Part shown: positions 29,897 to 53,020 of the stretch, in pieces
Position numbering within the stretch: the stretch's first letter is position 1
Layout of the letters: the number at the start of each line of letters is the position of its first letter
NCBI GenBank assembly: GCA_043820025.1
Contig: JBDRED010000005.1
Span: 20,442 to 84,441 of the forward strand
Reading direction: 5' to 3'
DNA from: Elusimicrobiota bacterium
Lineage (GTDB): Bacteria > RUG730 > JBDRED01
DNA: 64,000 bases
The notes under the pieces: generated by a model
Database searches by the model: none
What the model was told of the DNA's origin: nothing
Seen by the model: the letters and a program-made list of their open reading frames with translations, nothing else
Program-made: the position numbers and the translations under genes

Positions 29897-30532
29897 ATGA
29901 TACAAAAGATTCTGGAAAACGCAATTTCGGGTGAATTTGACTATAATTTATTGCTATATTGCCTATCTGAATATAAAAATCCCAGGAAAGAGATCACAAA
30001 GTTATTGAAAAGGAAAGATATAATTAGAGTAAAAAAGGGTTTATATGTTTTTGGGGAAAAAGTGAAAAATGCGCCTCCATATTCACTGGAGGTATTGGCG
30101 AATCTAATATATGGGCCGTCGTATATATCATGCGAATATGCGTTAAGCTATTATGGCTTGATTCCTGAAAGAGTAAAGATTGTTTCGAGTATAACGAATA
30201 AAAGAAATAAATATTTTAGTACGCCGATAGGGGATTTCTCTTATAAATATTTGGCTTCTCAAAAATATAGAGTCGGGATCACCCAAATACAAATAGATAA
30301 GGTTAGAAATATTTTGATAGCGACAAAAGAGAAAGCGTTAATTGATTTTATTCATAATGAAAAAATATCGGATGTCGCTGAGATGAAAAGTTTTCTTTGC
30401 GAAAATTTGAGAATTGACGAAGAAATGTTATTAGATTTAGACGTAACTCAAATTCGTTCCATTAATGAAGTATTTAAATCAAATACAATTAAATTATTAG
30501 TTGATTATTTGACTATTATTAGAGGAAAATAA
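29897..30532 (+). CDS. AbiEi-family antitoxin / transcriptional regulator (type IV TA, abortive infection)
   Basis: 211 aa. KGLYVF...ANLIYGPSYISCEYALSYYGLIPE matches the AbiEi pattern. Lies immediately upstream of an AbiEii gene (2-nt gap). Confidence 0.8.
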   Translation: MIQKILENAISGEFDYNLLLYCLSEYKNPRKEITKLLKRKDIIRVKKGLYVFGEKVKNAPPYSLEVLANLIYGPSYISCEYALSYYGLIPERVKIVSSITNKRNKYFSTPIGDFSYKYLASQKYRVGITQIQIDKVRNILIATKEKALIDFIHNEKISDVAEMKSFLCENLRIDEEMLLDLDVTQIRSINEVFKSNTIKLLVDYLTIIRGK

Positions 30533-30534
30533 TA

Positions 30535-31377
30535 ATGATATTAGCGGTTGAGAAGATGCTTAGTAAATATAAATTGGATTCAGTGGCTTCGTATGAAAAT
30601 GCTCTGAAAGAAATAATACAAGAGATTGCTTTGCTTGGGCTTTGGAGAGCTAAGTTTTTTGAGCATGCTGCTTTTTATGGAGGAACAGCTTTGCGAATTT
30701 TCTATGGGATGGATCGATTTTCAGAAGATTTAGATTTTTCGTTATTAAAACCAAACAAAAGCTTTAATTTATTTATCTATAATAAAGCTGTTCAAGAGGA
30801 ATTATCGAGTATGGGGTTTAATGTTCAAGTAAATGAAAAAAAGAGAAACAATGAGAGTAATATTCAGGCAGCATTTATTAAGGCTGACACAAAGATGTAT
30901 GATTTTGAAGTCAACTTGGATCCAAGAAAAAAGTTGAAAATTAAGTTTGAAATTGATATAAATCCGCCTCAAAAATTTGAAACGGAAACAAAATATTTGC
31001 TTAATCCTACGGAATTTTATGTAAAGGTTTACTCAAAACCCGATCTGTTTGCCGGGAAATTACATGCTGTTTTGTGCCGCAGGTGGGGGAAGAGAGTAAA
31101 AGGCAGAGACTGGTTTGATTTTATTTGGTTTGTCAAAAATAAAGTGCCTGTTAATTTGCGGCACTTGGAGGCGAGGTTAAAACAAACAGAGCATTTAGAA
31201 AAAAATGCGGTTTTCAATGCGGATGTTTTAAGAGAAATGCTCTTAAAAAGGATAGAAGAATTAGATATTGAATTGGCTAAGAAGGATGTTTTGTTATTCC
31301 TTTCAGATACTGAAAGATTGCAAACATGGTCTAAAGAATTCTTTTCTCATATAGTATCTCAACTGATGGTTTTGTAA
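30535..31377 (+). CDS. AbiEii/AbiGii-family nucleotidyltransferase toxin
   Basis: FYGGTALRIFYGMDRFSEDLDFS is the NTase motif of DUF1814/AbiEii. 280 aa. Confidence 0.85.
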   Translation: MILAVEKMLSKYKLDSVASYENALKEIIQEIALLGLWRAKFFEHAAFYGGTALRIFYGMDRFSEDLDFSLLKPNKSFNLFIYNKAVQEELSSMGFNVQVNEKKRNNESNIQAAFIKADTKMYDFEVNLDPRKKLKIKFEIDINPPQKFETETKYLLNPTEFYVKVYSKPDLFAGKLHAVLCRRWGKRVKGRDWFDFIWFVKNKVPVNLRHLEARLKQTEHLEKNAVFNADVLREMLLKRIEELDIELAKKDVLLFLSDTERLQTWSKEFFSHIVSQLMVL

Positions 31378-32243: not shown

Positions 32244-32304
32244 GGGGTCAGGTCTCTACATTCCACATTTGTGGATAAAATGTGGAATGTAGAGACCTGA
32301 CCCC
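32244..32304. repeat. 61-bp palindrome, family B (GGGGTCAGGTCTCTACATTCCACATTT arm)
   Basis: The left arm 32244-32270 is the exact reverse complement of the right arm 32278-32304, with a 7-nt loop gtggata. Starts 4 nt after the methyltransferase stop. Confidence 0.92.
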
Positions 32305-35266: not shown

Positions 35267-35296
35267 TTGCAGTAAGGAGCTATTTTTTGCATAATA
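35267..35296 (+). promoter_or_regulatory. Candidate promoter of the Tad-like operon (TTGCAG-18-ATAATA with TG extended -10)
   Basis: TTGCAG at 35267-35272, TG at 35288-35289 and ATAATA at 35291-35296. This would place the transcription start upstream of ATG 35335 and argues against the track start at 35287. Confidence 0.4.
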
Positions 35297-35334: not shown

Positions 35335-36486
35335 ATGAAATCTTATTTTCTTAAACTTTTCGTATCTGCTGCCCTTGTTACAATAATTTCTACAATTTCA
35401 TACGCAGAAATTTCTACAGCTGACAGCGGTAATATTGAAGTCTTTACATCTTTTGGCCCGATGCTTATGGGCCAGACATCCGCGTTTGTTACTGTTGATT
35501 CGCTAATAAGTGATACATATGGCGATGTTCAAAGCGGCGGCGGGGATCAGATCTCGTCATCATTTTTTGAGTTTATTGAATATGCCGTAATGTCCAGCCC
35601 TGCTCTTCTCACATGGAAGGATCCGGATAGTAAATACTTTGTGGTCGTTCTTCCTGATAAGGTTGATTTCCAAACAGTTTACGAGGATTTATATGGCTTA
35701 GATCCGTCTATAGGATTCCCAAAAGCTGTATATTGGAAAACCAACTCGCCTCAATCAGAGGTTGAGCTTGAGAAAAAAGCTGCATTCGCGGACGGTTATA
35801 TATATGAAAAGAAGGTTGCTCTAGACCTCGGTATCTATAATTATAAATATTGCGCGACGAATGATAGTTATCCGGATATGTATGAGCTTTTAACAAGCTC
35901 ATTCGTTGTGACGCGGGCGCCTAATGGGTTCACTAATAAAGGCGTTGCTGATGGTTCCATTGTTTCAAACGCGCGTGTTCCTCTAATGTGGGATCAGGGA
36001 GATCCTGTTGATGCGCCGTTTACATATGAGGTCTGGTTAAAAGAAGGCGATCTTGGCAGCTGGGTAATGATTCATAGCGGTTCTGAAAATAGCTATGAGT
36101 TAACAGCTCTAAACTATGCTACAAAATACTATTGGAAGATTAAGAGCACAAATAAAAATGGCGCTTGGGCGTGGAGCAGTGAATATTCATTTACCACGAT
36201 CAATTCCGTTGACAGGCCGTTTAATTATCCAAACCCATTCAATCCAAATAAACAAAAAACGAGTATTGTTTTTAATAGCGCTTCTGCGCAGGACGTAACA
36301 ATAAAGATTTATTCAGAATATGGCGACCCTGTCTTTAGCGCAACGCACAGCGCCGAGATTGGAGCAAATGAATTTATTTACGACGGAAAGGATGATAGAG
36401 GCGAGACGCTGTATAATGGTTCATATATTTGCAGAATAGAAACTAATGAAGGAGCAAAAGCATGTTATATATTAATAATAAAATAA
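35335..36486 (+). CDS. Secreted protein with Fn3-like domain and FlgD-Ig/T9SS-like C-terminal domain
   Basis: Signal peptide MKSYFLKLFVSAALV. An Fn3-like segment (PLMWDQG...YEVWLKEG...YYWKIKSTNKNG). C-terminus NYPNPFNPNKQKTSIVF...VTIKIYSEYGDPV...YDGKDDRGETLYNGSYICRIE...YILIIK. Confidence 0.65.
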   Translation: MKSYFLKLFVSAALVTIISTISYAEISTADSGNIEVFTSFGPMLMGQTSAFVTVDSLISDTYGDVQSGGGDQISSSFFEFIEYAVMSSPALLTWKDPDSKYFVVVLPDKVDFQTVYEDLYGLDPSIGFPKAVYWKTNSPQSEVELEKKAAFADGYIYEKKVALDLGIYNYKYCATNDSYPDMYELLTSSFVVTRAPNGFTNKGVADGSIVSNARVPLMWDQGDPVDAPFTYEVWLKEGDLGSWVMIHSGSENSYELTALNYATKYYWKIKSTNKNGAWAWSSEYSFTTINSVDRPFNYPNPFNPNKQKTSIVFNSASAQDVTIKIYSEYGDPVFSATHSAEIGANEFIYDGKDDRGETLYNGSYICRIETNEGAKACYILIIK

Positions 36487-38318
36487 TTTATAAAATATTT
36501 TCCGGAATTTTGTTTGTAATATTAATCTCTCAAACAATATTTGCGTCTGATGGTTACAGAAGGCATTTCTTGTCCTATGGGCCAAGCGCTTCTGCTTCAG
36601 CTTTAGGAGAGTCATATACTGCGCTGGGCCACGATGGAACTGTATCATATTATAACCCTGCGCTCCTTACAACTCTAAGCGGCTATCAAACATCAGTATC
36701 TAACTGGTTTTTATATGATACAGCGAGGTATAGCTTTGCAGGCTTTTCATCATCAAACGAAAAGCAGGCGTTTTCAATAAGCGGCATACAGTTTTTGAGA
36801 GACAATATCGAGGTAAGAACAAATATTTACGACGAACCGACAAACACTAAGAATAGCCAGTTGGCAATTTTCGGAGCTTACGCGCGTTATATTGAAAAAT
36901 ATAAACTGCATACAGGATTGTCTCTTAAATATCTAAATTATGAAATGTATACTTATACAAGCACCGGTTTTAGTTTGGATTTAGGATTTGCAAAAGACAT
37001 ATACTTTCGAAAGAATGAGATAGGAAAGGAGTTTAGGATTGCGTCAGGTTTAAGGATTCAAAATATTATTCAGAAACCTATTAAAATGATAGAGGAAGAA
37101 GAGAAGATGCCGTTTGGCGTTATATTAGGACTCGGATTAAGCACGACTCTGTTTAATAGATATAGCGAGGCAAAAGACAGAATAGTGTCTGACAGAATTA
37201 CATTTGTAATTGACCTGGGAATGGTTGACAGTGTTTTCGAATATTCCGGAGGATTAGAGTATTCTTATAAAGGTTTCGCTCATCTTAGAGGAGGGTGGAA
37301 GGAAGGATTAACCGGAGGCGTTGGATTTACATTTGGCGATTTAAATATTAATTATGCGCTTCTTGTAAAGGAGTTTACAAGCTTTAATAAGGTTGATGTG
37401 GCGTATAGGTTCGGGCCAAAAGGCGCGGAATCAATCAAACCAAAAAATGTGGAGATAAAACAGAATCGTGATTTAGGGCTGATGAAAGAAGCGCAGAGAA
37501 TCCTCTCAGAGTCTCAAGCTGAAGAGGCTGATAGAGAAAAGAAGTTTAATATTCTTTTTAAGGAAGCGAAAGGATACCATAACGCAAAAAAATATCTTAA
37601 GGCTACAGATAAATTTAGGGAGATAATGTTATATTACCCTGAACAAACCAAGGTGCAGTCATATTATGACGAGATTAAGAAAACAATGAAAGCGCAGGCT
37701 GAAAATGAAATGACTACGGATTTTGAAAAGCTTGCTTACTCAAAGGCTTATATGAATTATATTAATCAGAATATCGGAAATGCTGTAAATGAATGGAACA
37801 AAGTTTTACAGTTTAATGAAAATCAAAAAGAAGTAAAGGAATACAAAGAATGGGGCGAAAAATACTTAGCTGATACAGCTCAGCTCGAAAGGGAAAAGGA
37901 GCTCGAAGCAAAAGTTAAAGCAGAGTATGGTAGTGGAACAGCGCAATATGATGAAAAGAAATGGATTTCTTCAATAAAAACAATGGAAGGAGTTCAATCA
38001 ATGTGCAAGAAGAATCCTTTCCCAAGAGCTCTTGAGTGGAATGATAAGGCGCAGGAATATATTAATAAGGCGCTTGAAAAACTTGCTAAGAGCCGGGTCG
38101 TTAGGAATGAGCAAAAAGATGTGGTTAAAGAAGCTCAGCCAAAGATTGATAAAGAAGGAGCTGATAAAAAATACAGGGAAGGGCTTGTATCATACGCGCA
38201 TGGTAAGACGAGCAGCGCAATACAATTATGGGAGATAGCAGTGCGCCTTGATCCGGGCCATGATAAGGCATGGAAAGCGATTGATAGAGCAAAAGAAGAA
38301 TTAGGAGCGGCAAAATGA
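36462..38318 (+). CDS. Outer-membrane FadL/PorV-like barrel fused to C-terminal TPR region (TadD-like?)
   Basis: After the signal peptide comes GPSASASALGESYTALGHDGTVSYYNPALL, the same signature as the ORF at 26623. The beta-rich region runs to about aa 320, then helical TPR-like repeats (e.g. REGLVSYAHGKTSSAIQLWEIAVRLDPGHDKAW). AAGGAG RBS. Overlaps the upstream gene by 25 nt. Confidence 0.6.
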   Translation: MLYINNKIIYKIFSGILFVILISQTIFASDGYRRHFLSYGPSASASALGESYTALGHDGTVSYYNPALLTTLSGYQTSVSNWFLYDTARYSFAGFSSSNEKQAFSISGIQFLRDNIEVRTNIYDEPTNTKNSQLAIFGAYARYIEKYKLHTGLSLKYLNYEMYTYTSTGFSLDLGFAKDIYFRKNEIGKEFRIASGLRIQNIIQKPIKMIEEEEKMPFGVILGLGLSTTLFNRYSEAKDRIVSDRITFVIDLGMVDSVFEYSGGLEYSYKGFAHLRGGWKEGLTGGVGFTFGDLNINYALLVKEFTSFNKVDVAYRFGPKGAESIKPKNVEIKQNRDLGLMKEAQRILSESQAEEADREKKFNILFKEAKGYHNAKKYLKATDKFREIMLYYPEQTKVQSYYDEIKKTMKAQAENEMTTDFEKLAYSKAYMNYINQNIGNAVNEWNKVLQFNENQKEVKEYKEWGEKYLADTAQLEREKELEAKVKAEYGSGTAQYDEKKWISSIKTMEGVQSMCKKNPFPRALEWNDKAQEYINKALEKLAKSRVVRNEQKDVVKEAQPKIDKEGADKKYREGLVSYAHGKTSSAIQLWEIAVRLDPGHDKAWKAIDRAKEELGAAK

Positions 38319-39079
38319 AATTATTTTTTAGATCGTTAACTTTAGTATTCCTTTTTGTATGCTGTATACAGATCGCCGGCGCTGTTGATACTATTGAAAT
38401 ATCAGTCGAGGTTACGGAAATCAATAACACAAAGGCGAAAGAATTAGGTATTAAGTGGCTGGATAGTATTGAGGTTGTGGAAGAGGGCTATACCGGATAC
38501 ACAGATGGAGCTGATCAAATAGTTATTAATGGGACTGAGCTGGATGTTATTAATAAAATAGGCAAGATAACGCCTTTAAGAGCGGAATTAAAATTTTTGC
38601 AAGAGAATGGCGCTGCGGAAATTTTATCTAAACCAAAATTAATTACTAAATCAGGAAGCAAGGCAAATACACTTATAGGCGGCGAGTTTCCGATAGTTGT
38701 GCCCGGCGTAGGCGGGGCTCAAGGCACAGTTGAGTGGAAGAAATATGGTATAAAGATGAATATTTCGCCGGAGGTAATATCTCGAAATAACGAAAAAATT
38801 ATTGCGTTAGATTTAAATACCGAAGTCAGCAGGCTTGATTGGGCAAATTCTGTTCAGGGATTTCCTTCAGTTACTGTGAGACAGGCAGAATCATCTGTAG
38901 AGCTTAAGAGCGGACAGACAATGACTATTGCAGGACTTATTAGAACTCTAGAGAAAAAAGACAGGGCAGGACTTCCTGTGCTTGGCAGTATTCCTCTATT
39001 AAGATATTTTTTTTCTCATGAAGTAGTAACTAAGGAAAAATCTACAATATTAATTTTTGTCACACCAAAGATATTATAA
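38315..39079 (+). CDS. Minimal secretin (CpaC/RcpA-type secretin core only)
   Basis: 254 aa with a signal peptide. IEISVEVTEINNTKAKELGIKW...AEILSKPKLITKSGSKANTLIGGEFP...MTIAGLI...GLPVLGSIPLLRYFF...TILIFVTPKIL is a typical secretin C-domain. No N0/N1-type domains precede it. Confidence 0.8.
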   Translation: MKLFFRSLTLVFLFVCCIQIAGAVDTIEISVEVTEINNTKAKELGIKWLDSIEVVEEGYTGYTDGADQIVINGTELDVINKIGKITPLRAELKFLQENGAAEILSKPKLITKSGSKANTLIGGEFPIVVPGVGGAQGTVEWKKYGIKMNISPEVISRNNEKIIALDLNTEVSRLDWANSVQGFPSVTVRQAESSVELKSGQTMTIAGLIRTLEKKDRAGLPVLGSIPLLRYFFSHEVVTKEKSTILIFVTPKIL

Positions 39080-39082
39080 TGA

Positions 39083-39592
39083 ATGACTAAACTAGTCGCT
39101 GTCTCTAATTATCCGAGGACTGCTATTATGCGTTTCATAAAAAAAATAATTAAAAACAATAAGGGGCAGGCTATTGTTGAAACTGCGCTAATCATGACAA
39201 TAATACTCATGATTCTTATAGGCAGTATGCAGTTGTTCATTTATGTTTTTTCCAGCTCTTTGGGAAATCATGTAGCTTATAAAGCTAACAGAGTTTACTC
39301 GGTTTCTCCTGAGGGCTGCTTCAGGGATGTGCTGACAGTGGCCAGATATTTTATTTTTTTTAAAAATGGTTTTATGCTGCCTACGTCCACAGATGAAAGG
39401 ATAGAGGATATCGAAGGCGGATATCAGATAACATCGATATATTTGACATTTAAAACAATAATCTTTGGCAGGAAAATTATTCGAGTATTTGACGGATGGT
39501 TATGGAATAGTCATAAATCGAGATCAAGAATGATTAAGTCTCCGGATTCTGAATTTCATAATAAGGCATATCCCGGAGCAAGCGAGTTTTAA
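39083..39592 (+). CDS. TadE-like pseudopilin
   Basis: NNKGQAIVETALIMTIILMIL is a TadE-type N-terminal motif (G / xxxVE then a hydrophobic helix). The true start may be ATG 39128. Confidence 0.7.
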   Translation: MTKLVAVSNYPRTAIMRFIKKIIKNNKGQAIVETALIMTIILMILIGSMQLFIYVFSSSLGNHVAYKANRVYSVSPEGCFRDVLTVARYFIFFKNGFMLPTSTDERIEDIEGGYQITSIYLTFKTIIFGRKIIRVFDGWLWNSHKSRSRMIKSPDSEFHNKAYPGASEF

Positions 39593-39593
39593 C

Positions 39594-40670
39594 ATGTTTA
39601 ATATTAAAATAAAATTAAAACTAAATAACAAAGGCCAGGTACTGCCATTACTATTCAGTGTGATCTTTGTAATGATTATTCTTTTTTATATGTCTCTAAA
39701 TTATGGCAAGGCTGTTTATAGGGCAATGGAGGTGCAGAATGCTGCGGATAACGCGGCGCTTTCAGCAGCGGCATACAGGGCAAGGGTTTTAAATTATTTA
39801 GGATGTATGAACCGAAAGATATCTGCATGCCTTTATGGCGGTACTGTAATACCTTTGCCTACGAAGACAGATTATTTGGCTTCCTTTGCTGAGTGGGGAT
39901 TATTGCACTATAATGATTTCATGTTTGTTGCTTCTCTTTTTGGAATCTGTCCCCAAGTAGGAATTCCTATATTGCCTATGCGTTTTGTAGATAGTCAGAA
40001 AAAAATTGGGCATGTAGTAGATTTTTCACACATGTTTTGTCCAGGGACCGATTGTGGTTCGGAAGATTGTAAAGTTATGATTCAAATAGATAGGTTTCTT
40101 GTTAATTCAATGATAATTCTTCAAGACATTGTTATAACTGCTTATCCAATAACAGAGAATGTAATTATATATCAGGTTGTTGAAGCTAACTGCGAGGGGG
40201 CAAGAGGCGCTCTGGTACAGGGATATAGCTTGGGTCTGGAACGTAATAAGAAAGGCGTTAAATACATGAAGACAAACTCAACCTGTATAAGCTGGCCTCC
40301 CGGACCTTTTTGGCCCGGAGGCCATATTCATTTTGCAACTGCAGAAGATTGGAAGGAAGATAAAAAATCATGGCTGTATGCAGATAAAAAAAATAATGCT
40401 TTTGATAAAAGTCATAAGATGATAGTCGGCGTAACAAAAAAATATGATGATAATCCTTTTTGGTTTTCAGATGAGCGTCTGCCTATTTGGGGTAGATATA
40501 TAAGAACTGCATCAGCTTCGACATATAATCCTAATGGCTCTATGTTTGTATCGGTTGAGAATAATGAAATTTCGCCTGTTTTTAAGGCTTATAAATCTGC
40601 GGCTGATCCGGGCTGGAAGGCGCACCAAGTTCAGGATTTAATGATGGCCGGATTGATAACGAATAGCTGA
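39594..40670 (+). CDS. TadG-like pilus assembly protein (Tad N-terminal domain)
   Basis: NNKGQVLPLLFSVIFVMIILF...YGKAVYRAMEVQNAADNAALSAAAY matches the TadE/G-like N-terminal family pattern. 358 aa. Confidence 0.65.
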   Translation: MFNIKIKLKLNNKGQVLPLLFSVIFVMIILFYMSLNYGKAVYRAMEVQNAADNAALSAAAYRARVLNYLGCMNRKISACLYGGTVIPLPTKTDYLASFAEWGLLHYNDFMFVASLFGICPQVGIPILPMRFVDSQKKIGHVVDFSHMFCPGTDCGSEDCKVMIQIDRFLVNSMIILQDIVITAYPITENVIIYQVVEANCEGARGALVQGYSLGLERNKKGVKYMKTNSTCISWPPGPFWPGGHIHFATAEDWKEDKKSWLYADKKNNAFDKSHKMIVGVTKKYDDNPFWFSDERLPIWGRYIRTASASTYNPNGSMFVSVENNEISPVFKAYKSAADPGWKAHQVQDLMMAGLITNS

Positions 40671-40771
40671 TTTGGGGTCAGGTCTCTACATTCCACATTT
40701 GTAGCTGATTTGGGGTCAGGTATCTACATTCAACATTTGTGTATAAAATGTGGAATGTAGAGACCTGACCC
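40664..40771. repeat. Family B palindrome with tandemly duplicated left half (2 x 38 nt) overlapping the TadG-like stop codon
   Basis: Units 40664-40701 and 40702-40739 (agctgatttggggtcaggtNtctacattcNacatttgt) differ at 2 positions. The right arm aaatgtggaatgtagagacctgacccc is at 40745-40771. The stop TGA at 40668-40670 lies inside unit 1. Confidence 0.92.
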
Positions 40772-40784
40772 CTAGGAGATTTTA

Positions 40785-41279
40785 ATGAAATTGGTTAATG
40801 ATAAAGGCCAGGCAATAGTTGAAACCGTAATTTTTATTCCTATACTTATTATGCTGGTTTCCATGATATTTTGGGCAATAAATGTTGTTCTTACAAAGCA
40901 GCAGCTTGTATCTGCGGCAAGGTTTGGGACGGATATGATTTATTATACTGAGATGGGCGAGGAAACCATAAAGGAAGAAATTGTGAATTATCTTTGCGGC
41001 GAGCCCGGAGAATCGAATAATAATGAGGATGAAGATAGAGAAGCTGTCGGGCGTAAACTGGACACTGAAAAAATACAGGAAATTATTATAAATATCGATC
41101 GCAGCGGCGGGCTTTTAAATTTAGGCCTTTCTAAGGTTTCTATTAAATATGTGATAGATGTGCCAAAGGTATTTACAGTAATGGCAAAGGCAATTAGGGC
41201 GCAGACTGAGGATGATCCTGAAGGAATAATTATTGAAGGTAAGTCTGCAATACTAGCGGGTTTCGAAGGAAGAATGTAA
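40785..41279 (+). CDS. TadE-like pseudopilin
   Basis: NDKGQAIVETVIFIPILIMLVSMIF N-terminus, the same processing-like motif as the ORF at 39083. Confidence 0.7.
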   Translation: MKLVNDKGQAIVETVIFIPILIMLVSMIFWAINVVLTKQQLVSAARFGTDMIYYTEMGEETIKEEIVNYLCGEPGESNNNEDEDREAVGRKLDTEKIQEIIINIDRSGGLLNLGLSKVSIKYVIDVPKVFTVMAKAIRAQTEDDPEGIIIEGKSAILAGFEGRM

Positions 41280-41366
41280 ATATGGAATTGAGAATCGGGA
41301 ATAGTGAATTGAGGTAAGGTCAATAAATAAAAGCAATGTATTATAATTTCATGGAGGAAATATTTT

Positions 41367-42248
41367 ATGAAAAAACAGGTATTGTATGCGGTTGTTTTAG
41401 GAGGGTTAACAGCGCTTTTTATGTTTGCTTATATAAGCAAGGTTCAGATGGATTATAGCCGGGGAGCGGAGAAGGCGACTGTATTGGTTGCAAAGCAGTA
41501 TGTTGATCAGACAGTGCTTTTAGACAGTACTATGTTTATTGAGAAGAAGGTGCCTAAAGACTATATTCAGCCTAGAGCTATAGAGTCTTTAAAGGATCTG
41601 ATCAATGAGGAAGGCAACTCAGTTTTTATGAGCATAGTCCCTATTGAAGAAGGAGAGCAGCTTGTTGCGACAAAGCTTTTAATGCTTGGCGTTGAAACAG
41701 GTATTGCCGCTGTTACGCCTTCGAATATGCGCGCAGTAACATTAACGAACATCAATGATTCGGTTAAGATGATTAAACCGGGAAATAGAGTGGATGTTGT
41801 TTTAACATTTGAGTATGACGATAAAGACGGAAACAGCAGTGAGGTTACAAGCACAATATTACAGAATGTACTGGTTCTGGCTGTGGGAAATCAGATAATA
41901 GGCGGTATGCAGATAAGTTTAGGAAAGGATAAAAAAAATGTAGTGAGCGCGCAAGGGCTTAATAATATAGAAACTATTTCACTCGCAGTATCTCCATCAG
42001 ACGGTGAAAAATTAGCTCTTGCGTCGGAAAAGGGTGAAATTACTTTTTCACTGCGGCCGATTGGCGATGAGCAGATTTATGAATCAAAAGGGGTGCAGAT
42101 GTCAGATCTTGTGGGTAATATTAACATAACTTCCGGATCAGGCGGTAATAAAGGGCACGGATCGTCGGAAAGTAATGATTATCTTAAGATGGTGCAGAAA
42201 CAGCAGGCAGAAGCAATGAAATTGTTGCAAAAATATAAAAAGCAATAA
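41367..42248 (+). CDS. cpaB: Flp pilus assembly protein CpaB/RcpC
   Basis: N-terminal TM, a SAF-like segment (VLVAKQYVDQTVLLDSTMF...GEQLVATKL), and an RcpC-like beta-clip (RAVTLTNIND...IKPGNRVDVVLTF...ILQNVLVLAVG). Confidence 0.8.
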   Translation: MKKQVLYAVVLGGLTALFMFAYISKVQMDYSRGAEKATVLVAKQYVDQTVLLDSTMFIEKKVPKDYIQPRAIESLKDLINEEGNSVFMSIVPIEEGEQLVATKLLMLGVETGIAAVTPSNMRAVTLTNINDSVKMIKPGNRVDVVLTFEYDDKDGNSSEVTSTILQNVLVLAVGNQIIGGMQISLGKDKKNVVSAQGLNNIETISLAVSPSDGEKLALASEKGEITFSLRPIGDEQIYESKGVQMSDLVGNINITSGSGGNKGHGSSESNDYLKMVQKQQAEAMKLLQKYKKQ

Positions 42249-42263
42249 TTTAAGGAATAAAAA

Positions 42264-44345
42264 ATGGCAAAGATTATATCAATACTGGGTTCTAGTAATA
42301 AAATAAATGACTCAGTAGCCGCAGTTAATTTAGCATGCGCCGTAAAAGGATTAACTAAAGGCAAAGTTCTAGTGCTTGATTTTTATCAGAGCGATATATC
42401 GCAGTGTGAACTGCTTTTAGATTATTATCCGGAGAAGAAGATAGGTAATGTGATTGAAGTTATGGATAAATTAGACGCAAATATTTTAAAGGGGTATCTG
42501 CCTGCGCATGATAAAACAGGCGTTTCATTATTGTCAGGGTATTCTGACTGCGCAATGGATTTAACAAAATCGGATATTCAAATTCTTATTAAACTTTTTT
42601 CTAGTGCTTATGACTGCCTTGTGATTAATACTAATAAGAATAATAAAGAAATTCTTGAATCGGTTTTAGATCTTTCAACTGATTTGGTATCTGTTATTGA
42701 CCCGGAGGTGCTCTCATTAAGGAAGATAAAGGAATATATAGATTTTTTTAAATCAAGGCACCTCCCATTAGATCTGGCGCAGTTTGTTAGAGTGAAAACA
42801 GATGCTGAACATGCGCTAACACAAGAGCAGGTAGAGGAATATATCGGTGTTAAAGCTCCTCTATTAATTAATTTTTCAAACGATCTTGTTACAACGTCAA
42901 TTAATAAAGGCGTTCCGTTCTTAATATCAAAACCGCATAGTGATATGTCCAGACAGTTTAAGGAACTTGCTAATATTCTTTTAAACAGTAAACAATCTGA
43001 TAAGGCAAAAAGTCAAAATGATGAAATTATTGACGCAAAGGATCAAAGAAGAGATGATAAAAGAAATGAGGTTGATTATAAGGCGTTAAAAGAAAAAATA
43101 CATAAGGATTTAATAGCAGAGCTTAGGATGAAGAATGTTGATGTAAATGCATTAGCTGACAGCAATCAGGCTGAATATATTAGAGAAACAACAAAGGAAA
43201 CAATTCGAGACCTTATAGCTTATGAGGGCGGTTCTTTATCGAGAGAAGAAAGATCTAAATTTGTTAATGAGCTTATGAATGAGGTTTTGGGCTTAGGTTG
43301 TTTAGAAGAACTTTTATGTAATCCGGAAATAACGGAAATTATGGTTAATGGGCCTGATATGATTTATATAGAAAAAAAGGGAAAGCTTACTCTTAGCGGT
43401 TTAAGATTCCCGTCTACAGAACAACTTATGACAGTTATTGACAGAATAGTATCTCCTCTTGGAAGACGCGTTGACGAATCTGTGCCATTGGTGGATGCAA
43501 GGCTTGCTGACGGTTCGCGCGTTAATATTATTATACCTCCTTTGGCTCTTAATGGACCAACAATAACTATAAGAAAATTTTCTGAGAGCAAACTTCAGAT
43601 TGAAGACTTAATTAACTTTGGCGCTCTTACGCCTGATATGGGCGAGATTTTAAAAATATGTGTTCAGCTTCGTAAGAATATAGTCGTATCAGGGGGAACA
43701 GGCAGTGGAAAGACAACTCTTTTAAATGTAATATCATCCTTTATTCCGTCGGATGAGCGTATTTGCACAATTGAGGACTCTGCGGAATTAAAACTGCCTC
43801 AGGATCATGTTGTGCGATTAGAATCAAAACCGGCGTCGCTTGAGGGAACCGGCGCTATTCCAATACGAAGGCTGGTTATAAATGCTCTGAGAATGAGGCC
43901 TGACAGAATCGTAGTCGGAGAATGCCGCGGCGGAGAGACGCTTGATATGTTACAAGCTATGAACACAGGCCATGACGGGTCTCTTACAACGCTTCACGCT
44001 AATAATCCCAAGGATGCGATCTCTCGTATCTCAACAATGGTAGTTATGGCAGGAACAGAGCTCCCTGAAAAAGCTATTAGAGAACAGATAGGTTCTGCTG
44101 TGCATTTAATTGTACAGCTTAATCGTCTTTCCGACGGATCAAGGAAGGTTACTGAAATAGCAGAGGTTGCCGGTATAAAGGATGATAAGCTTCAGATAAA
44201 TTCATTATTTAAGTTTAATCAGCATTCAGTAAAGGATGGGAAGGTATCAGGTGCGTTTGAGCCTACAGGCAGTCTTCCGACATTTTACGAGGAGATTGAG
44301 CGCCACGGCCTTAATCTTGATAAAGGTATCTTTAATAAAAAATAG
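42264..44345 (+). CDS. Fusion of a TadZ/CpaE-like degenerate ParA/MinD domain (N-terminal ~240 aa) with the CpaF/TadA secretion ATPase
   Basis: The N-terminus IISILGSSNKINDSVAAVNLACAV...KVLVLDF...YDCLVINTN...DLVSVIDPEVLSLRKIKE has a MinD/ParA-type layout but lacks the GKT lysine-threonine. The C-terminus has the CpaF core: ITEIMVNGPD, Walker A SGGTGSGKTTLLN, Asp box TIEDSAEL, Walker B RPDRIVVGECRG and His box TLHAN. Confidence 0.85.
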   Translation: MAKIISILGSSNKINDSVAAVNLACAVKGLTKGKVLVLDFYQSDISQCELLLDYYPEKKIGNVIEVMDKLDANILKGYLPAHDKTGVSLLSGYSDCAMDLTKSDIQILIKLFSSAYDCLVINTNKNNKEILESVLDLSTDLVSVIDPEVLSLRKIKEYIDFFKSRHLPLDLAQFVRVKTDAEHALTQEQVEEYIGVKAPLLINFSNDLVTTSINKGVPFLISKPHSDMSRQFKELANILLNSKQSDKAKSQNDEIIDAKDQRRDDKRNEVDYKALKEKIHKDLIAELRMKNVDVNALADSNQAEYIRETTKETIRDLIAYEGGSLSREERSKFVNELMNEVLGLGCLEELLCNPEITEIMVNGPDMIYIEKKGKLTLSGLRFPSTEQLMTVIDRIVSPLGRRVDESVPLVDARLADGSRVNIIIPPLALNGPTITIRKFSESKLQIEDLINFGALTPDMGEILKICVQLRKNIVVSGGTGSGKTTLLNVISSFIPSDERICTIEDSAELKLPQDHVVRLESKPASLEGTGAIPIRRLVINALRMRPDRIVVGECRGGETLDMLQAMNTGHDGSLTTLHANNPKDAISRISTMVVMAGTELPEKAIREQIGSAVHLIVQLNRLSDGSRKVTEIAEVAGIKDDKLQINSLFKFNQHSVKDGKVSGAFEPTGSLPTFYEEIERHGLNLDKGIFNKK

Positions 44346-44361
44346 TTGAGGTATAGTAGAT

Positions 44362-45240
44362 ATGACAAAAGTTTTTGCGTTATTGGCAATATTATTTTCA
44401 GCGCTTTTTTCAGGATATATAATTTATTTACTTTATAGCGCAATACAGGCGGCTAAGTCTTCGAAAAAATTTGATTACTTAAATCTAAGAAAGCTAAAAA
44501 GACTCGACAAAAAATTATTAATAAGAAATATGATTAATAATCCATATTCAAAGGTTACAAAAAATATTAAATGGTCTGTTAGCGTATTATTCTTTATCTT
44601 TTTAATGTTTGCGCTAGGCGATTTTATTTATTCTCTTTTAGGCCTTATCGGCATATTTGTGATTATAGGCAAGGCGCTGATAAGAAAACATAAAAAACAG
44701 ATAAACCTTTTTGATGCTCAGCTTATAGAAGCATTTGGAATGCTGGCTAATTCTCTAAAAGCAGGGCAGTCCTTACTGCAAGCGCTTGAGACAATGCTTG
44801 CTAATTCCAAGCCGCCGGTGTCTGTTGAATTTAGCGAGGTTTTAAGAGAGGTAAAGCTTGGCAAGTCTTTTGATAAGGCGCTTATTTCACTTGGGCAGAG
44901 AATTAAGAGCAAGGATTTGAGCATGGCAATAACATCAATTAATCTAGCGCGTGAGACAGGAGGTAACTTATCTGAGATATTGCTAAAAATTGCGTACACT
45001 ATGCGTGAACGAAAAAAACTTTACGGCAAGATAGACGCAATGACAACCCAAGGAAAGTCATCAGGGGTAATATTATCATTTGCGCCATTTGGCGTTTTAG
45101 GCCTTATGTATCTTATTGAACCTGAGATGATAGGATTAATGTTTACTACAACATTTGGAAAGGTAATGCTGCTTTTGTGTATAGGAATGGTGCTTATGGG
45201 TATGCATGTTATTAATAAGATAGTTGATATAAAATTATAA
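44362..45240 (+). CDS. TadB-like type II secretion system F-family inner-membrane protein
   Basis: 292 aa with TM segments flanking a T2SSF-like cytoplasmic domain (LKAGQSLLQALE...EVKLGKSFDKAL...LARETGGNLSEIL). Confidence 0.8.
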   Translation: MTKVFALLAILFSALFSGYIIYLLYSAIQAAKSSKKFDYLNLRKLKRLDKKLLIRNMINNPYSKVTKNIKWSVSVLFFIFLMFALGDFIYSLLGLIGIFVIIGKALIRKHKKQINLFDAQLIEAFGMLANSLKAGQSLLQALETMLANSKPPVSVEFSEVLREVKLGKSFDKALISLGQRIKSKDLSMAITSINLARETGGNLSEILLKIAYTMRERKKLYGKIDAMTTQGKSSGVILSFAPFGVLGLMYLIEPEMIGLMFTTTFGKVMLLLCIGMVLMGMHVINKIVDIKL

Positions 45241-45321
45241 TAAGTGTTTTAGTGTTTAGGTGTTTAAGCTATTATAATATTTCCTCTCATTTGTGACTTG
45301 AGGGGTAGGGAGAATAATAAA

Positions 45322-46212
45322 ATGTTATTAGTTTTTTTTCTTGTGCCTATATTAGCCGGGGTTACGATGGGGGTTATTGTCGTAATTGTTTTTTCTTTTT
45401 TTCAAAATATTCAGATAAGGCAGAGATTGTCTATTGAGGAAAAGGGCAGCAGGGAGCTTGCTCAGGGGAATCTTTCAAGAATATTCATGTCTGTAGCGTC
45501 AAGCGTTGGTCGCGCTGTAATCAAGGTTAAACTTCCGATACTGGAAAAAATTAAGGTTGAAATAGAGAGAAATTTTACTATTCTTGGGAAGCCGTATATT
45601 AATATCTCTCCTTATCTTTGGGTTGGTATTCAGATCATGGCAGGATTAGGTTTAGGCGGATTTTTATTTTTTTATGTATCAAAAAACTTATTATTTCTTC
45701 TAACCGGCCTTATTATAGGATTTTATGCTCCGATAATTGCTATCAAAAATAAGGTAAAGAGTAAATATGAAAAGATATTTAGCGAAATGCCTGATATTTT
45801 AGATCTTTTAACATTAATGGTAGAGGCCGGACTTGATTTTTCTAACGCTGTTCATAGGCTTGTGCAGACAGAAAAAGGAGAGCTTGTGAATGAACTGGCT
45901 CATGCGCAGGAGGAAGCTAAGCTTGGAAAATCGAGAATACAGGCTCTTATTGACATGTCAAAACGCGTTAATTTTCCGCCTCTTACAAATGTTATTAATT
46001 CTGTCACACTATCGCTTAAGACCGGTTCGAGCATGGCTCCGACGCTTAGGTCGCTTTCAGAACAGTTTAGGGTTGAAAGGACTCAAATGGTAGAAAAGCT
46101 GGCTGCTAAAGCTCCAACAAAACTTATGTTTCCTCTTATAATGTTTATCTTTCCGACAATATTTATTGTTATCTTCGGCCCTGTAATTTTATCATTTATT
46201 TATAATAGATAA
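45322..46212 (+). CDS. TadC-like type II secretion system F-family inner-membrane protein
   Basis: T2SSF-like domain (PDILDLLTLMVEAGLDFSNAV...EAKLGKSRIQAL) with three TM regions. Start moved to ATG 45322. Confidence 0.75.
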   Translation: MLLVFFLVPILAGVTMGVIVVIVFSFFQNIQIRQRLSIEEKGSRELAQGNLSRIFMSVASSVGRAVIKVKLPILEKIKVEIERNFTILGKPYINISPYLWVGIQIMAGLGLGGFLFFYVSKNLLFLLTGLIIGFYAPIIAIKNKVKSKYEKIFSEMPDILDLLTLMVEAGLDFSNAVHRLVQTEKGELVNELAHAQEEAKLGKSRIQALIDMSKRVNFPPLTNVINSVTLSLKTGSSMAPTLRSLSEQFRVERTQMVEKLAAKAPTKLMFPLIMFIFPTIFIVIFGPVILSFIYNR

Positions 46213-46221: not shown

Positions 46222-46285
46222 AGAAGTCAGAATCCAGAATCCAGAATCCAGAATAATTATAATCAGTTCTTTATTCTATATTCTG
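46222..46285. repeat. Tandem heptamer element, family D: tcagaat + (ccagaat)x3 with downstream inverted attct units
   Basis: The heptamers at 46227-46254 are followed by attctatattctg (46273-46285). The element sits between the convergent genes tadC(+) and the minus-strand gene ending at 46276, so it may act as a bidirectional terminator. Confidence 0.7.
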
Positions 46286-47331
46286 AAATATATAATTGTT
46301 CCGATATATTTGTTAGTATTATTAAAGACTGTTAGTAGCTCAATAGTTTTATTATCTATATTCGCAGTAATTTTAGAGTTGGGCTTAGATGACGCATCCT
46401 TAAAAGCGTCTGCCAATGGTTTTATTTGCGGTATTTCCAGAATGTGTTTATTCACGCTATCGCCTGCAATGTTTAATGCTAGGCTGAATTTAGATGACAA
46501 TGCAATAAGTTTATTCTCCGAATTAAAGACAGCTATTGCTCCTTCTGTAAAATTATTTATTAAGCCTCGAATCAGTAAAGAAATATTTTTATTTATTTCG
46601 TTCGCGGATTTTTCCATAGCCTGATCTTCTCTATTATACTTTTCAATAATATCATTTAGGTGTCCGGCTAGGCCTGCTAACTCGTCCTTGGATTTTATTT
46701 CAATTTTCTCGCCTCTGCCTAATAATGAGGATCTCAGCATATTTTCAAAACTTTTAAATCTTGATGAGATCTGTATTTTCATAAATGAAATTATTAAAAT
46801 GATAGCGATAATCAGCACGATCAATAATGAAAAAAACATGTTTCGTTTTATGCCTGCGAGTTTTTGCTTAATTTCAACGGTAGTAAGCCCAATACATAAG
46901 GTTAATGACTCAGTTACAGGAGAAGAGAATATTTCAATATTGGGATCATTGGTTTTTTGTATTATATTTTTTTTGGAAGCAATAGACTTTTTTGTATATT
47001 CATCTGTATATTCCTTGTCCCATTCTGATGTTTTATTGTGCATAATAACTTTACCTGCTCCGTCTACGATATACGCTGTGGTCAATTCGTCTAATTTTAA
47101 AATACTTTCTATCTGCGAAAGCAATAATAAGTCGTCTTGTAAATCAATAGCTTTGTTTATTAGAGGTTTTGAGAGGTCAGATGCGGTTTGGGCTCTGTTG
47201 TACAGGTCTGTGTACAAAGACTTTTTTTGCGCGGGTATGAGACGAAAATAATTGAAATAAATAATTATTATTGATACTAAAAGTATAGTAAAAACAATCA
47301 GCTTTGATGAAAGGGTTTTAATTCTTAACAT
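46276..47331 (-). CDS. Membrane sensor-like protein (TM - periplasmic domain - TM - HAMP-like - PAS-like), no recognisable output domain
   Basis: Two hydrophobic helices (aa ~10-30 and ~165-185). A HAMP-like DELAGLAGHLNDIIEKYN follows. No kinase, GGDEF or MCP signalling motif seen. Confidence 0.5.
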   Translation of the reverse strand: MLRIKTLSSKLIVFTILLVSIIIIYFNYFRLIPAQKKSLYTDLYNRAQTASDLSKPLINKAIDLQDDLLLLSQIESILKLDELTTAYIVDGAGKVIMHNKTSEWDKEYTDEYTKKSIASKKNIIQKTNDPNIEIFSSPVTESLTLCIGLTTVEIKQKLAGIKRNMFFSLLIVLIIAIILIISFMKIQISSRFKSFENMLRSSLLGRGEKIEIKSKDELAGLAGHLNDIIEKYNREDQAMEKSANEINKNISLLIRGLINNFTEGAIAVFNSENKLIALSSKFSLALNIAGDSVNKHILEIPQIKPLADAFKDASSKPNSKITANIDNKTIELLTVFNNTNKYIGTIIYFRI

Positions 47332-52518: not shown

Positions 52519-52953
52519 ATGATAATTGGCGTTATTGGCGGAAGAGTTTGCAGTGATGATACAAAAAAGGCAGCGTTTAAAATCGGAGCGCATATAGCTG
52601 AGTCAGGGCACTATCTTATGTGCGGCGGATATTCGGGCGTAATGGAAGAGGCATGCAGGGGGTGTAAGAGCAAGAATGGCACAACTATAGGCATATTAAT
52701 GCACGAAGATAAAAGAGAGATGAATCCATACATAGATATTCCAATAGTTACAGCTATGAGTTTAGCAAGGAATGCTATAATTGTGAGGTCAGCTGATATA
52801 CTTATAGCTTTTGAAGGAAGTTATGGCACGCTCTCAGAGATAGGTATGGGTTTAGCGCTAGAAAAACCAATAATTGGCTTTAAAACATGGGATATTAAAG
52901 GAATTACTACTGCAGACACAGTTGAGGATATAATCCGCAAATTACCGAACTGA
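52519..52953 (+). CDS. TIGR00725/LOG-like Rossmann-fold protein
   Basis: IIGVIGG...LMCGGYSGVMEEACRG...GTTIGIL...ADILIAFEGSYGTLSEI pattern. Confidence 0.7.
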   Translation: MIIGVIGGRVCSDDTKKAAFKIGAHIAESGHYLMCGGYSGVMEEACRGCKSKNGTTIGILMHEDKREMNPYIDIPIVTAMSLARNAIIVRSADILIAFEGSYGTLSEIGMGLALEKPIIGFKTWDIKGITTADTVEDIIRKLPN

Positions 52954-53020
52954 GGGACAGACCCCAAATTCGGTTACTCGGGAGTAACCGAATTTGGGGT
53001 CTGTCCCTCAGTTCGGTAAT
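52941..53020. repeat. 80-bp perfect palindrome, family A, overlapping the last 4 codons and stop of the upstream gene
   Basis: The left arm 52941-52979 is the exact reverse complement of the right arm 52982-53020. The stop TGA at 52951-52953 lies inside the element core cTGAgggacagacccc. Confidence 0.92.

Follow-up and report, generated by a model that had tools for sequence, protein, structure and literature searches.

A Tad-type gene set without Flp pilin or prepilin peptidase genes, preceded by a surface-cargo and barrel cassette, in an Elusimicrobiota bacterium

The closest described relatives of the gene cluster considered here are the Tad/Flp (type IVc) pilus loci, such as flp-tad-rcp of Aggregatibacter and pilA-cpaA-F of Caulobacter. 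With these it shares the CpaF/TadA ATPase, TadB, TadC, CpaB/RcpC, and a secretin, as well as a ParA/MinD domain resembling TadZ, and TadE and TadG proteins whose leaders fit G↓xxxxE. However, the cluster contains neither flp nor tadV and has a foreign two-gene cassette translationally coupled upstream. As in the nearest relatives, CpaF carries a fused TadZ-like domain in which the P-loop has been lost. The secretin is just 254 aa long, which is typical of the phylum. Tad-like clusters in which a genuine major pilin and an essential peptidase of their own seemed to be lacking have also been described as Kil in Myxococcus xanthus, where minor pilins make tip complexes (PMC8460266, PMC12075869). 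There, the authors raised the question of a major pilin "still missing" before naming KilP as that pilin, and they proposed its processing by a different, possibly shared, peptidase (PMC12075869). While KilP has thus been identified in Kil, our cluster is known from a single window (the whole 64-kb stretch of DNA that was analyzed) and shows no sign of a predatory role.

The cassette at the head of the cluster resembles a different group of systems. [quoted passage not shown] The cargo gene adjoins its cognate barrel gene, as in the cassette, and a periplasmic TPR element goes with the barrel (PorE with PorP), whereas in gene 2 of our cluster the TPR is fused to it. In contrast to the T9SS, which has been characterized in Bacteroidota and the FCB group, the cassette occurs in Elusimicrobiota, where it leads type IV secretion system (T4SS) loci and, here, a Tad locus; no T9SS core genes (SprA/Sov, PorKLMN, or PorU) were seen within the 64-kb window. 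The Slam/type XI proteins (TPR plus a 14-strand DUF560 barrel) likewise combine a TPR and a 14-strand barrel next to a surface-cargo gene, but gene 2 has the reverse order (barrel, then TPR), a PorV-family barrel without a DUF560 Pfam match, and a CTD protein rather than a lipoprotein as cargo.

The original prediction of a ten-ORF cluster was borne out in coordinates and junctions: ten ORFs, all on the + strand, occupy positions 35335-46212, with a 25-nt overlap between genes 1 and 2 (36462/36486), a 4-nt ATGA overlap between gene 2 and the secretin gene (38315/38318), and gaps of 3, 1, 114, 87, 15, 16, and 57 nt, in order, at the remaining seven junctions. Profile searches of all ten proteins likewise upheld the domain identities of the predicted parts list. 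The features are as follows.

35335..36486, + strand: gene 1, secreted adhesin-like cargo of 383 aa with a CTD (ATG start at 35335)
36462..38318, + strand: gene 2, PorV/PorQ-like barrel plus TPR (NF033709, AF2 model, Foldseek)
38315..39079, + strand: short Tad secretin, 254 aa (PF00263, 135 bits), starting in the gene 2 stop (ATGA)
39083..39592, + strand: TadE-like minor pilin 1 (PF07811, 27 bits), class-III signal NNKG↓QAIVET, Glu at +5
39594..40670, + strand: TadG-like minor pilin, 358 aa (PF13400, Tad/TadG N-terminus, 30 bits), NNKG↓QVLPL, without Glu at +5
40674..40772, strand not applicable: REP-like perfect palindrome, 27-nt arms and an additional direct copy
40785..41279, + strand: TadE-like minor pilin 2 (PF07811, 29.7 bits), NDKG↓QAIVET
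41280..41366, strand not applicable: 87-nt gap, the usual flp position in relatives, with a -10-like box (TATTATAAT) inside
41367..42248, + strand: CpaB/RcpC periplasmic alignment protein (TIGR03177, 133 bits), 39-46% identity to relatives
42264..44345, + strand: MinD/TadZ-like domain fused to CpaF/TadA ATPase (T2SSE, 221 bits; TIGR03819, 319 bits)
44362..45240, + strand: TadB-like inner-membrane platform protein (PF00482, 67 bits), 37-47% identity to relatives
45298..46212, + strand: TadC-like inner-membrane platform protein (PF00482, 51 bits), 37-46% identity to relatives; the gene likely starts at ATG 45322
46276..47331, - strand: membrane sensor-like gene, 351 aa, convergent, kept beside tadC in relatives

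Judged by sequence, genes 3 to 10 are the standard Elusimicrobiota Tad layout. The Tad variant of this phylum (L007, L009, L010, L021, L025, and L027) has the same gene order; the series secretin-TadE-TadG-TadE-...-CpaB-CpaF fusion-TadB-TadC recurs in L021, L025, and L027 and is partially present in L007, L009, L010, L020, and L024. The secretin and its 246-258-aa counterparts in L009, L025, and L027 share 44-46% identity, and TadE1 has orthologues in L019, L021, L022, L025, and L027, in each case the first gene of TadE type. Identities to related loci are 25-32% for the TadG-like protein and 31-39% between TadE2 and the relatives' TadE gene that precedes flp. The CpaF fusion has dozens of full-coverage homologues of ~700 aa in Elusimicrobiota; the MinD matches of its N-terminal domain are weak and the P-loop there is degenerate, while the Walker A (GGTGSGKTT), Walker B, and His box motifs of the CpaF part are all intact.

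The distinguishing feature of this Tad set is the missing pilin. In 9 of 11 related loci, flp (encoding 53-61 aa) lies upstream of cpaB, mostly as tadE-flp-cpaB. For about 16 further CpaF-fusion matches, the longest contig has the same length as that of an Flp match, suggesting that both lie on one contig. At the corresponding place in our cluster, the 87-nt gap has neither an ORF nor any remnant of Flp, and the Flp HMM gives no match there. The original prediction that the cluster has no Flp or peptidase gene holds through the entire 64 kb: neither an Flp pilin nor an A24 prepilin peptidase was found in the window using motif scans (including the GxGD[..]K catalytic motif of the peptidase), tblastn queries of five Flp proteins from Elusimicrobiota plus an A24 peptidase, a lineage-specific Flp HMM run on six-frame stop-to-stop segments of >=20 aa, and Pfam searches covering practically all ORFs of >=110 aa. 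The sole HMM match in the window was the TadE1 N-terminus (E 3e-4). By this comparison, the loss of flp from the slot upstream of cpaB is real and derived. The TadE leaders follow the same G↓Q-x-x-V-E register as Flp, which is the processing motif of the lineage, and its retention implies a peptidase encoded outside the window.

Split loci, with pilin or peptidase genes apart from the Tad genes, do occur in Elusimicrobiota. In L023, no pilin gene lies within 10 kb of cpaB-cpaF-tadBC, and in L009 the A24 peptidase is encoded ~6 kb away on the opposite strand. Precedents exist both for tadV in trans and for a "missing" major pilin (PMC6668835, PMC12075869). For the genome studied here, the sole Flp candidate at NCBI belongs to another assembly.

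Besides a signal peptide and a region of Fn3/Ig type, gene 1 encodes a C-terminal sorting domain of ~90 aa with CYILIIK as its last residues. This domain matches the T9SS type-A sorting domain TIGR04183 at 23.9 bits (cut-off 23); the Fn3 and FlgD_ig matches are weak. Every gene for a barrel with a TPR domain of one type (TPR1) is preceded by a cargo gene whose 655-2203-aa product has a CTD sharing 41-55% identity with that of gene 1. An M6 peptidase encoded in the same window has a CTD unlike that of gene 1. Gene 2 consists of a 14-strand barrel (residues ~34-320), a disordered linker (321-336), and, at the C-terminus, an all-alpha TPR-like domain (338-615). It matches the PorV/PorQ family NF033709 at 88.7 bits (cut-off 90, E 5e-25) and PorQ at E 6e-15, and its AF2 model (pLDDT 77.9) is matched best in Foldseek by chain F of T9SS translocon complexes (8gl6, E 8e-12; 6h3i, E 8.5e-10; TM 0.64-0.67), the next match being seven orders of magnitude worse. 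The barrel shares 44-49% identity with TPR1-type barrels but ~28% with those of a second type (TPR2); for the TPR half the picture is reversed, with 38-43% identity to TPR2 and no more than 25 bits against TPR1. Gene 2 is thus a domain-swap chimera of a T4SS-type barrel with a different, widespread TPR2 domain. A second PorV-like/CTD-cargo pair, with no secretin adjoining, lies at 26623-29685.

The pair of cargo and barrel genes is found again in relatives, where the 25-nt overlap is conserved and the cargo carries a cognate CTD, and cassettes of the same barrel/cargo type lead VirB2/VirB4/VirD4 T4SS loci in six of them (L001, L003, L006, L012, L014, and L015). PrgB, an aggregation substance, is encoded ahead of the T4SS genes of pCF10. 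The six relatives have a comparable arrangement, with a gene for a large repeat-rich surface protein directly upstream of VirB2/VirB4/VirB8/VirB10/VirD4-type genes, but the host of the cassette is diderm, the anchor would be an outer-membrane barrel and not cell-wall sorting, and the machine downstream in our window is Tad, not T4SS. The original prediction took the two head genes as part of the Tad-like operon and named a lack of synteny with Tad genes in relatives as evidence against its own reading. The cassette is in fact absent from 11 of 11 related Elusimicrobiota Tad loci and its lineage otherwise heads T4SS loci, which counts against that reading. Genes 1 and 2 are therefore best regarded as a cassette independent of the Tad genes. 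Composition is even from the flanks through the cassette and the Tad genes, which argues against an assembly chimera.

Our best reading is that the locus is composite and not demonstrably a new kind of machine: we give a probability of roughly 0.55 to an adhesion locus in which cassette and Tad set stand head-to-tail on an otherwise ordinary piece of chromosome, with flp and tadV elsewhere in the genome. Gene 1 would be exported by Sec, and its CTD, by analogy, would dock on the gene 2 barrel, tethering the adhesin at the cell surface. Such anchoring of CTD proteins is established for PorV/PorQ (PMC5562754), and the PorP-PorE-PG1035 complex likewise comprises a barrel, a TPR-bearing partner, and a cargo (PMC9143113). 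Because the barrel termini are periplasmic, the TPR domain would lie in the periplasm and bind some partner there. The TadE-TadG-TadE minor pilins may prime or tip a fiber whose major pilin and prepilin peptidase would come from other genome sites. A fiber-like protein of 888 aa is encoded immediately upstream, and together with the cluster it reads as an adhesion locus.

A closer union of the two parts is conceivable, in which the barrel-TPR protein works with the Tad secretin at the outer membrane, its TPR2 domain acts in the periplasm like the TPR pilotins or docking proteins TadD, PilF, or PorE, the CTD adhesin is set beside the pilus exit, and Flp and TadV are supplied in trans. The 4-nt overlap (ATGA) in which gene 2 ends and the secretin gene begins points to co-translation and might mean that the two work together more closely than neighboring genes need to, and the swap of TPR1 for TPR2 exactly at the linker, with the cargo-matching barrel retained, would be expected if the TPR specifies the periplasmic partner. 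Furthermore, the locus has no separate TadD-like TPR gene, unlike L010, where one lies between flp and cpaB, and a TPR2-type protein (P0255) and a CpaF fusion (P0072) are probably encoded on one 41,093-bp contig. The overlap, the swapped TPR, and this probable shared contig were counted against the composite reading. However, no TPR2 domain protein was found in the related Tad loci examined, different sequence precedes the secretins of L009 and L027, PorV and TPR2 form an unfused pair without Tad neighbors in L004, and many TPR2-type fusions lie on large chromosomal contigs without a corresponding top CpaF or Flp match. We consider such a joint machine unlikely.

The original prediction suggested a possible pilin-less, Tad-derived machine, of which the parts list and the flp loss stood while pseudopilin-based secretion or display gained no positive support. 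In such a machine, the three proteins TadE/TadG/TadE would assemble into a short piston, or a complex at the tip, like a T2SS endopilus, and the CTD adhesin would be pushed or presented via the short secretin and captured by the PorV-like barrel. An empty flp slot without remnant fits this proposal, as do a second TadE-CpaB junction without flp (L026), the tight coupling of cargo, barrel, and secretin, and the lack of another outer-membrane translocon for CTD cargo in the window. Yet the same cargo/barrel lineage is found beside T4SS genes or alone, with no Tad genes present; the minor-pilin set matches that of flp-bearing relatives; and the pair at 26623-29685 stands without a secretin beside it. 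Since pseudopilins need an A24 peptidase, which the locus lacks, trans-encoded parts are required in any case, and we regard this proposal as quite doubtful. It is more improbable still that the Tad system became inactive when flp was deleted and that the rest is being lost beside an unrelated cassette. The flp gene is indeed missing from its syntenic site, and a mobile-looking palindromic element separates tadG and tadE2, but all eight Tad ORFs are intact and full length compared with their orthologues, with catalytic motifs and processing sites conserved. The degenerate P-loop of the TadZ-like domain, which might also speak for decay, is common to the closest flp-bearing relatives (P0025, P0031, and P0040) and is therefore no sign of it.

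Transcription of the cluster as a single operon, as first proposed, is favored by the tight junctions and made doubtful by the 114-nt gap between tadG and tadE2 (40671-40784), which holds the palindrome with its 27-bp arms (RNA fold -59.5 kcal/mol, z -8.7). An identical second copy of this element is present at 32244-32304, and it could serve as a transcript attenuator or stabilizer. The candidate promoter at 35267-35296 was missed by a consensus scan, and promoter-like sites in the region showed no clear enrichment (46 versus 38.6 +/- 5.4 in shuffles). The 351-aa sensor-like protein encoded beside tadC is 23-41% identical to the products of same-position genes in L019, L020, L022, and L023; it has a weak WalK N-terminal match, its L010 homologue matches PAS, and it may be a regulator.

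The Tad genes of the window lie in a run of ten co-directional ORFs headed by a two-gene cassette. The locus and the neighboring features referred to here are as follows:

20307-20384 and 52940-53021: palindromes of one intergenic family
25641-29685: second barrel and CTD-cargo module
29897-31377: AbiEi/AbiEii toxin-antitoxin pair
32244-32304 and 40674-40772: identical copies of a 27-nt-arm palindrome
32390-35056: 888-aa fibre-like protein
35287/35335-46212, + strand: the ten ORFs, in order an adhesin-like cargo protein with a C-terminal sorting domain (CTD; gene 1), a PorV-like barrel-TPR protein (gene 2), secretin, TadE1, TadG-like, TadE2, CpaB, MinD-like/CpaF fusion, TadB, TadC
38315-39079, + strand: 254-aa secretin
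39594-39660, + strand: leader of the TadG-like protein
41280-41366: 87-nt gap upstream of cpaB
42264-43000, + strand: TadZ/MinD-like domain of the CpaF fusion
46276-47331, - strand: 351-aa membrane sensor-like protein, convergent to the locus

Pfam and NCBIfam scans of the ten proteins agreed with the parts list of the original prediction, and the junctions it had claimed were also recovered: overlaps of 25 and 4 nt, followed by gaps of 3, 1, 114, 87, 15, 16, and 57 nt. Of the components of the Tad/Flp type IVc pilus, the window contains a CpaF/TadA-type ATPase (T2SSE 221 bits, TIGR03819 319 bits; Walker A, Walker B, and His box read from the sequence), the TadB/TadC platform pair (two T2SSF proteins, 67 and 51 bits, orthologous to TadB/TadC of relatives), CpaB/RcpC (TIGR03177 133 bits; 39-46% identity to relatives), the secretin (PF00263 135 bits; 44-46% identity to the Tad-locus secretins of relatives), and the TadE/TadG minor pilins (PF07811 twice and PF13400 once, each above cut-off), whereas flp and tadV/cpaA are not found in its 64 kb. 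All eight Tad ORFs are full-length orthologues of the relatives' genes. The Tad secretins of the phylum are very short, 246-258 aa with signal peptide in the window and in two related loci from other genomes (L009 3652-4428; L027 1134-1874), which corresponds to about one N-domain plus the secretin core and is roughly half of RcpA/CpaC. Residues 61-251 of the CpaF fusion gave only weak MinD matches (E 1e-4 to 1e-3), with a degenerate P-loop; Walker A is lost (GSSNKINDS) here and in the nearest relatives, and the more distant fusion homologues P0078, P0098, and P0116 have an intact KGGVGxT P-loop. In the window's subclade, this domain has the look of a pseudo-ATPase scaffold.

The claimed lack of an Flp pilin and prepilin peptidase holds across the whole 64-kb window, and every method was concordant. 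Motif scans of the window detected neither Flp nor an A24 peptidase, the catalytic-motif scan for the latter included, and tblastn with five Elusimicrobiota Flp sequences and one A24 peptidase found no pilin or peptidase there. Pfam searches of essentially all window ORFs of ≥110 aa gave no PF01478 match and no pilin. Eleven lineage sequences were used to build an Flp HMM, which identified no Flp in any stop-to-stop segment of ≥20 aa in the window; its sole Flp-like signal was the TadE1 N-terminus. When the lineage Flp profile was searched against 5.8 billion proteins, 7154 matches were obtained; among the best 120 of these 7154, which were those listed, was one plausible NCBI Flp candidate, MFH0948278.1, whose assembly differs from that of MFH1714633.1, the NCBI protein identical to gene 2 (locus tag ABH857_00340, 91-kb contig).

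The leader (N/D)KG/Q opens all three pseudopilins (TadE1, TadG-like, and TadE2). Both TadE leaders read G/QAIVE, with Glu at +5 in the same register as in the lineage Flp (SG/QGMVEY), so both should be substrates of an Flp-type peptidase encoded outside the window. The leader of the TadG-like protein is NNKG/Q, as in the TadE pair, but is without Glu at +5. GspK, the tip pseudopilin of type II secretion, likewise lacks Glu at +5, and by this analogy the missing residue would fit a tip-capping role.

In Elusimicrobiota the ~700-aa MinD-like/CpaF fusion is the usual form, and Omnitrophica and Firestonebacteria have it too. Eleven independent related loci (L007/L019, L009, L010, L020/L022, L021, L023, L024, L025, L026, L027, and L028) have in common the gene order (secretin)-TadE-TadG-TadE-...-CpaB-CpaF fusion-TadB-TadC. 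In nine of the eleven, flp (53-61 aa, PF04964) precedes cpaB, and in several of these it directly separates tadE from cpaB; L007 carries three copies. The other two loci depart from this: L023 lacks pilin genes within 10 kb, and in L026 TadE is followed after 200 nt by CpaB. L009, which has a 258-aa secretin, encodes an A24 peptidase ~6 kb from its pilin genes. For ~16 further CpaF-fusion matches, the longest contig has the same size as that of an Flp match, which suggests that the two are on the same contig. Since the slot that holds flp in relatives amounts to only 87 nt here, flp has apparently been lost or relocated as a derived event. MacSyFinder models permit tadV to be encoded apart (PMC6668835), and there are precedents for trans-encoded peptidases and for "missing" major pilins (PMC6668835, PMC12075869). 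In some of the related loci (L021 400-1515; L019 12-695), a further, shorter CpaF-like ATPase gene accompanies the fusion, either upstream of the locus or adjoining the secretin. The 351-aa sensor-like gene, whose product shows weak WalK N-terminal, Cache, and PAS signals and no kinase domain, is kept directly downstream of tadC in L019, L020, L022, and L023, and L010 has a homologue with a PAS match; it may encode a Tad regulator.

The two genes at the head of the locus belong to a different association. The C-terminus of gene 1 matched TIGR04183 at 23.9 bits (cut-off 23; residues 314-391 of the 399-aa ORF), and its Pfam match, PF18962, was under cut-off. Gene 2 scored 88.7 bits against NF033709, under the cut-off of 90, over profile positions 5-316 of 326 (E 5e-25), and some of its homologues are named "PorV/PorQ family protein" by NCBI. 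Its AlphaFold (AF2) model (pLDDT 77.9), built on a 12-sequence alignment and superseding a 5-sequence model that was too weak (pLDDT 51), predicts a FadL-like 14-strand fold resembling PorV (14 long strands, 75-317), a disordered linker at the swap point (321-336), and then an all-alpha repeat domain. The best Foldseek matches in the PDB were 8gl6_F (E 8e-12) and 6h3i_F (E 8.5e-10), with TM 0.64-0.67 and E-values seven orders of magnitude better than those of any other barrel. Both entries are Flavobacterium T9SS translocon complexes, 8gl6 with the RemA CTD bound, and from its length of 345-367 residues we infer that chain F is PorV. Compared with the TadD/PilF-type TPR pilotin, the window TPR is fused to a barrel and has an ordinary signal peptide without a lipobox; it gave no specific match to pilotin families. 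In Slam/type XI secretion, an N-terminal TPR precedes a DUF560 barrel, whereas gene 2 has the reverse order and no DUF560 match.

A word-based search for homologues of gene 2 yielded eight proteins, with Elusimicrobiota or Endomicrobium as their only sources, and an exhaustive phmmer search of 1.84 billion representatives gave 63 matches at E ≤ 1e-30. Named family members come from Elusimicrobia, Endomicrobiaceae, and Ca. Liberimonas magnetica, on contigs of up to 748 kb. Two types of TPR half could be told apart: TPR1, found in barrel fusions heading type IV secretion (T4SS) loci, and TPR2, a different and widespread half that is present in gene 2.

Classes of gene 2 homologues among the top 150 representative matches and earlier matches
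Barrel + TPR2 fusions: at least 33; full-length matches to gene 2, 30-36% identity
Barrel + TPR1 fusions (T4SS-linked type): at least 35
Fusions with other C-terminal halves: at least 21
TPR2-only proteins: at least 41

Similarity of the two halves of gene 2 to each fusion type
Barrel half: TPR1-type, 44-49% identity, 258-285 bits; TPR2-type, ~28% identity, ≤132 bits
TPR half: TPR1-type, ≤25 bits; TPR2-type, 38-43% identity, 200-218 bits

Taken with the PDB matches, these half-by-half identities indicate that the barrel goes along with the cargo CTD and that the TPR half has been exchanged. Barrel-CTD recognition is known for PorV-cargo and PorQ-PorZ (PMC5562754), and by analogy the pairing of the gene 2 barrel with a cargo CTD is consistent with recognition of this style. 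The swap suggests that the barrel is tied to the cargo, and the TPR to something different. In L004, PorV and TPR2 occur as an unfused pair with no Tad neighbours, and a TPR2-type protein (P0255) and a CpaF fusion (P0072) are probably on one 41,093-bp contig.

The neighbourhoods of the eight homologues and a genome scan revealed a recurrent pair, in which a gene for a large repeat-rich secreted protein precedes one for a barrel-TPR protein, the two usually overlapping by 25 nt as in the window. The cargo proteins (383-2203 aa) have a common ~90-aa CTD (FNYPNPFNP...YSEYGD...YDGKD..G..LYNGSYICR...CYILIIK) that is 41-55% identical to that of gene 1; the YPNP...G.Y...K-terminal pattern is kept in all of them, and this CTD type is clearly unlike that of the window's M6 peptidase, whose gene lies 7 kb upstream. 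The pair lies directly upstream of VirB2/TrbC, VirB3-like, and VirB4 genes in L001, L003, L006, L012, L014, and L015, with VirB8, VirB10/TrbI, and VirD4 further downstream in L001; nothing comparable lies downstream of it in L002/L013. The same check turned against the two head genes as conserved Tad members: the cassette was present in 0 of the 11 related Tad loci. The idea that related Tad loci conceal a TadD-like or TPR2 protein was dropped as well, as the TPR2 HMM found none in those examined. Within the 64-kb window, Pfam and NCBIfam scans found no SprA/Sov, PorKLMN, or PorU. A viral-contig scan and plasmid tblastn gave no matches.

The region is most economically read as an adhesion locus of composite make-up: a Tad assembly set typical of the phylum, whose flp and tadV would be encoded elsewhere in the genome, preceded by a CTD-adhesin/PorV-TPR display cassette, with the 888-aa fibre-like protein just upstream. 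On that reading, the Tad genes make up an ordinary phylum-typical system that is locally flp-less, and the locus is a warning against deducing pilin-less machines from a single locus. The pseudopilin-only secretion machine of the original prediction is unlikely; we found no positive evidence for it. Cassette and secretin may be functionally linked, given their 4-nt overlap and the swapped TPR. A bolder reading makes that link central: Elusimicrobiota barrel-TPR fusions would be modular adaptors, here retargeted to the Tad machine, in which (i) the barrel keeps its cognate CTD adhesin at the surface with no need for a classical type IX system, (ii) the swappable periplasmic TPR docks the pair, TPR1 to a conjugative T4SS and TPR2 to the Tad secretin, (iii) the domain swap moved a T4SS-type adhesin pair to an Flp-free Tad machine, and (iv) the TadE/TadG pseudopilus exports or presents the adhesin. 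Taken as one joint claim, this is improbable.

The cassette is the more useful result: a PorV-fold barrel-TPR protein with a cognate CTD adhesin is widespread in Elusimicrobiota and repeatedly heads conjugation-type T4SS loci, and it takes CTD/PorV-type surface anchoring beyond the phyla where type IX secretion has been studied. Literature searches on T9SS in Elusimicrobia and on PorV with T4SS found nothing relevant; in the literature searched, the cassette, its T4SS link, and the natural domain swap appear to be undescribed. The swap offers a testable handle on how diderm bacteria equip conjugation and pilus machines with adhesins.

The proposal of a single operon stood only in part. Genes 1-5 are tightly packed, whereas the 114-nt gap before tadE2 holds a perfect palindrome with 27-bp arms (-59.5 kcal/mol, z -8.7), and TATTATAAT boxes occur in the 87-nt and 57-nt gaps. 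The proposed promoter (35267-35296) was not recovered by a consensus scan, which says little since the consensus may not be that of the phylum. Intrinsic terminators inside the cluster were dropped as candidates, with 7 found against 7.6 expected. Given the tight packing of genes 1-5, the gap palindrome, the boxes, and these uninformative scans, co-transcription of all ten genes is plausible but unproven. The window has two families of long perfect intergenic palindromes that are REP/MITE-like. The two 27-nt-arm copies, one upstream of the 888-aa gene and one in the Tad cluster, flank ~8.4 kb that includes the cassette; the other family has 38-40-nt arms and a common GGGACAGACCCCAAA core.

Otherwise the window is made up of housekeeping chromosome (pnp, ftsK, rpsB-tsf-pyrH-frr, dxr, ispG, proS, metK, alaS, and tol-pal). 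Composition is uniform throughout, and recent foreign origin or an assembly chimera was ruled out because GC, GC3, and tetranucleotide profiles of the locus match those of its flanks. The 888-aa protein just upstream of the cassette carries a phage tail collar domain and weakly matches the N-terminus of mosaic adhesive trimer fibres from Bdellovibrio; a protein with 41% identity to its first ~170 aa also stands ahead of the cassette in L013 (6027-7019). Three proteins make up the second barrel and CTD-cargo module: one of 317 aa whose N-terminus is weakly BamD/TPR-like, one of 424 aa in the PorV/PorQ family (NF033709 E 3.8e-15; also DUF5723/TraF_2), and an M6 metalloprotease of 567 aa ending in an FlgD_ig-type domain. 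The module suggests that surface sorting by PorV-like/TPR/CTD triads is a general theme of the genome. A few kb separate the AbiEi/AbiEii pair from the cassette downstream of it, and an AbiEii gene adjoins the cassette in L002/L013 too (L002 13104-14051), a hint that the cassette moves with mobile or defence-island DNA. At + strand genes, GC skew has uniformly high positive values (0.16-0.28); the one drop, to ~0.02, is at 46-48 kb, the site of two - strand genes, and the skew thus follows the coding strand.
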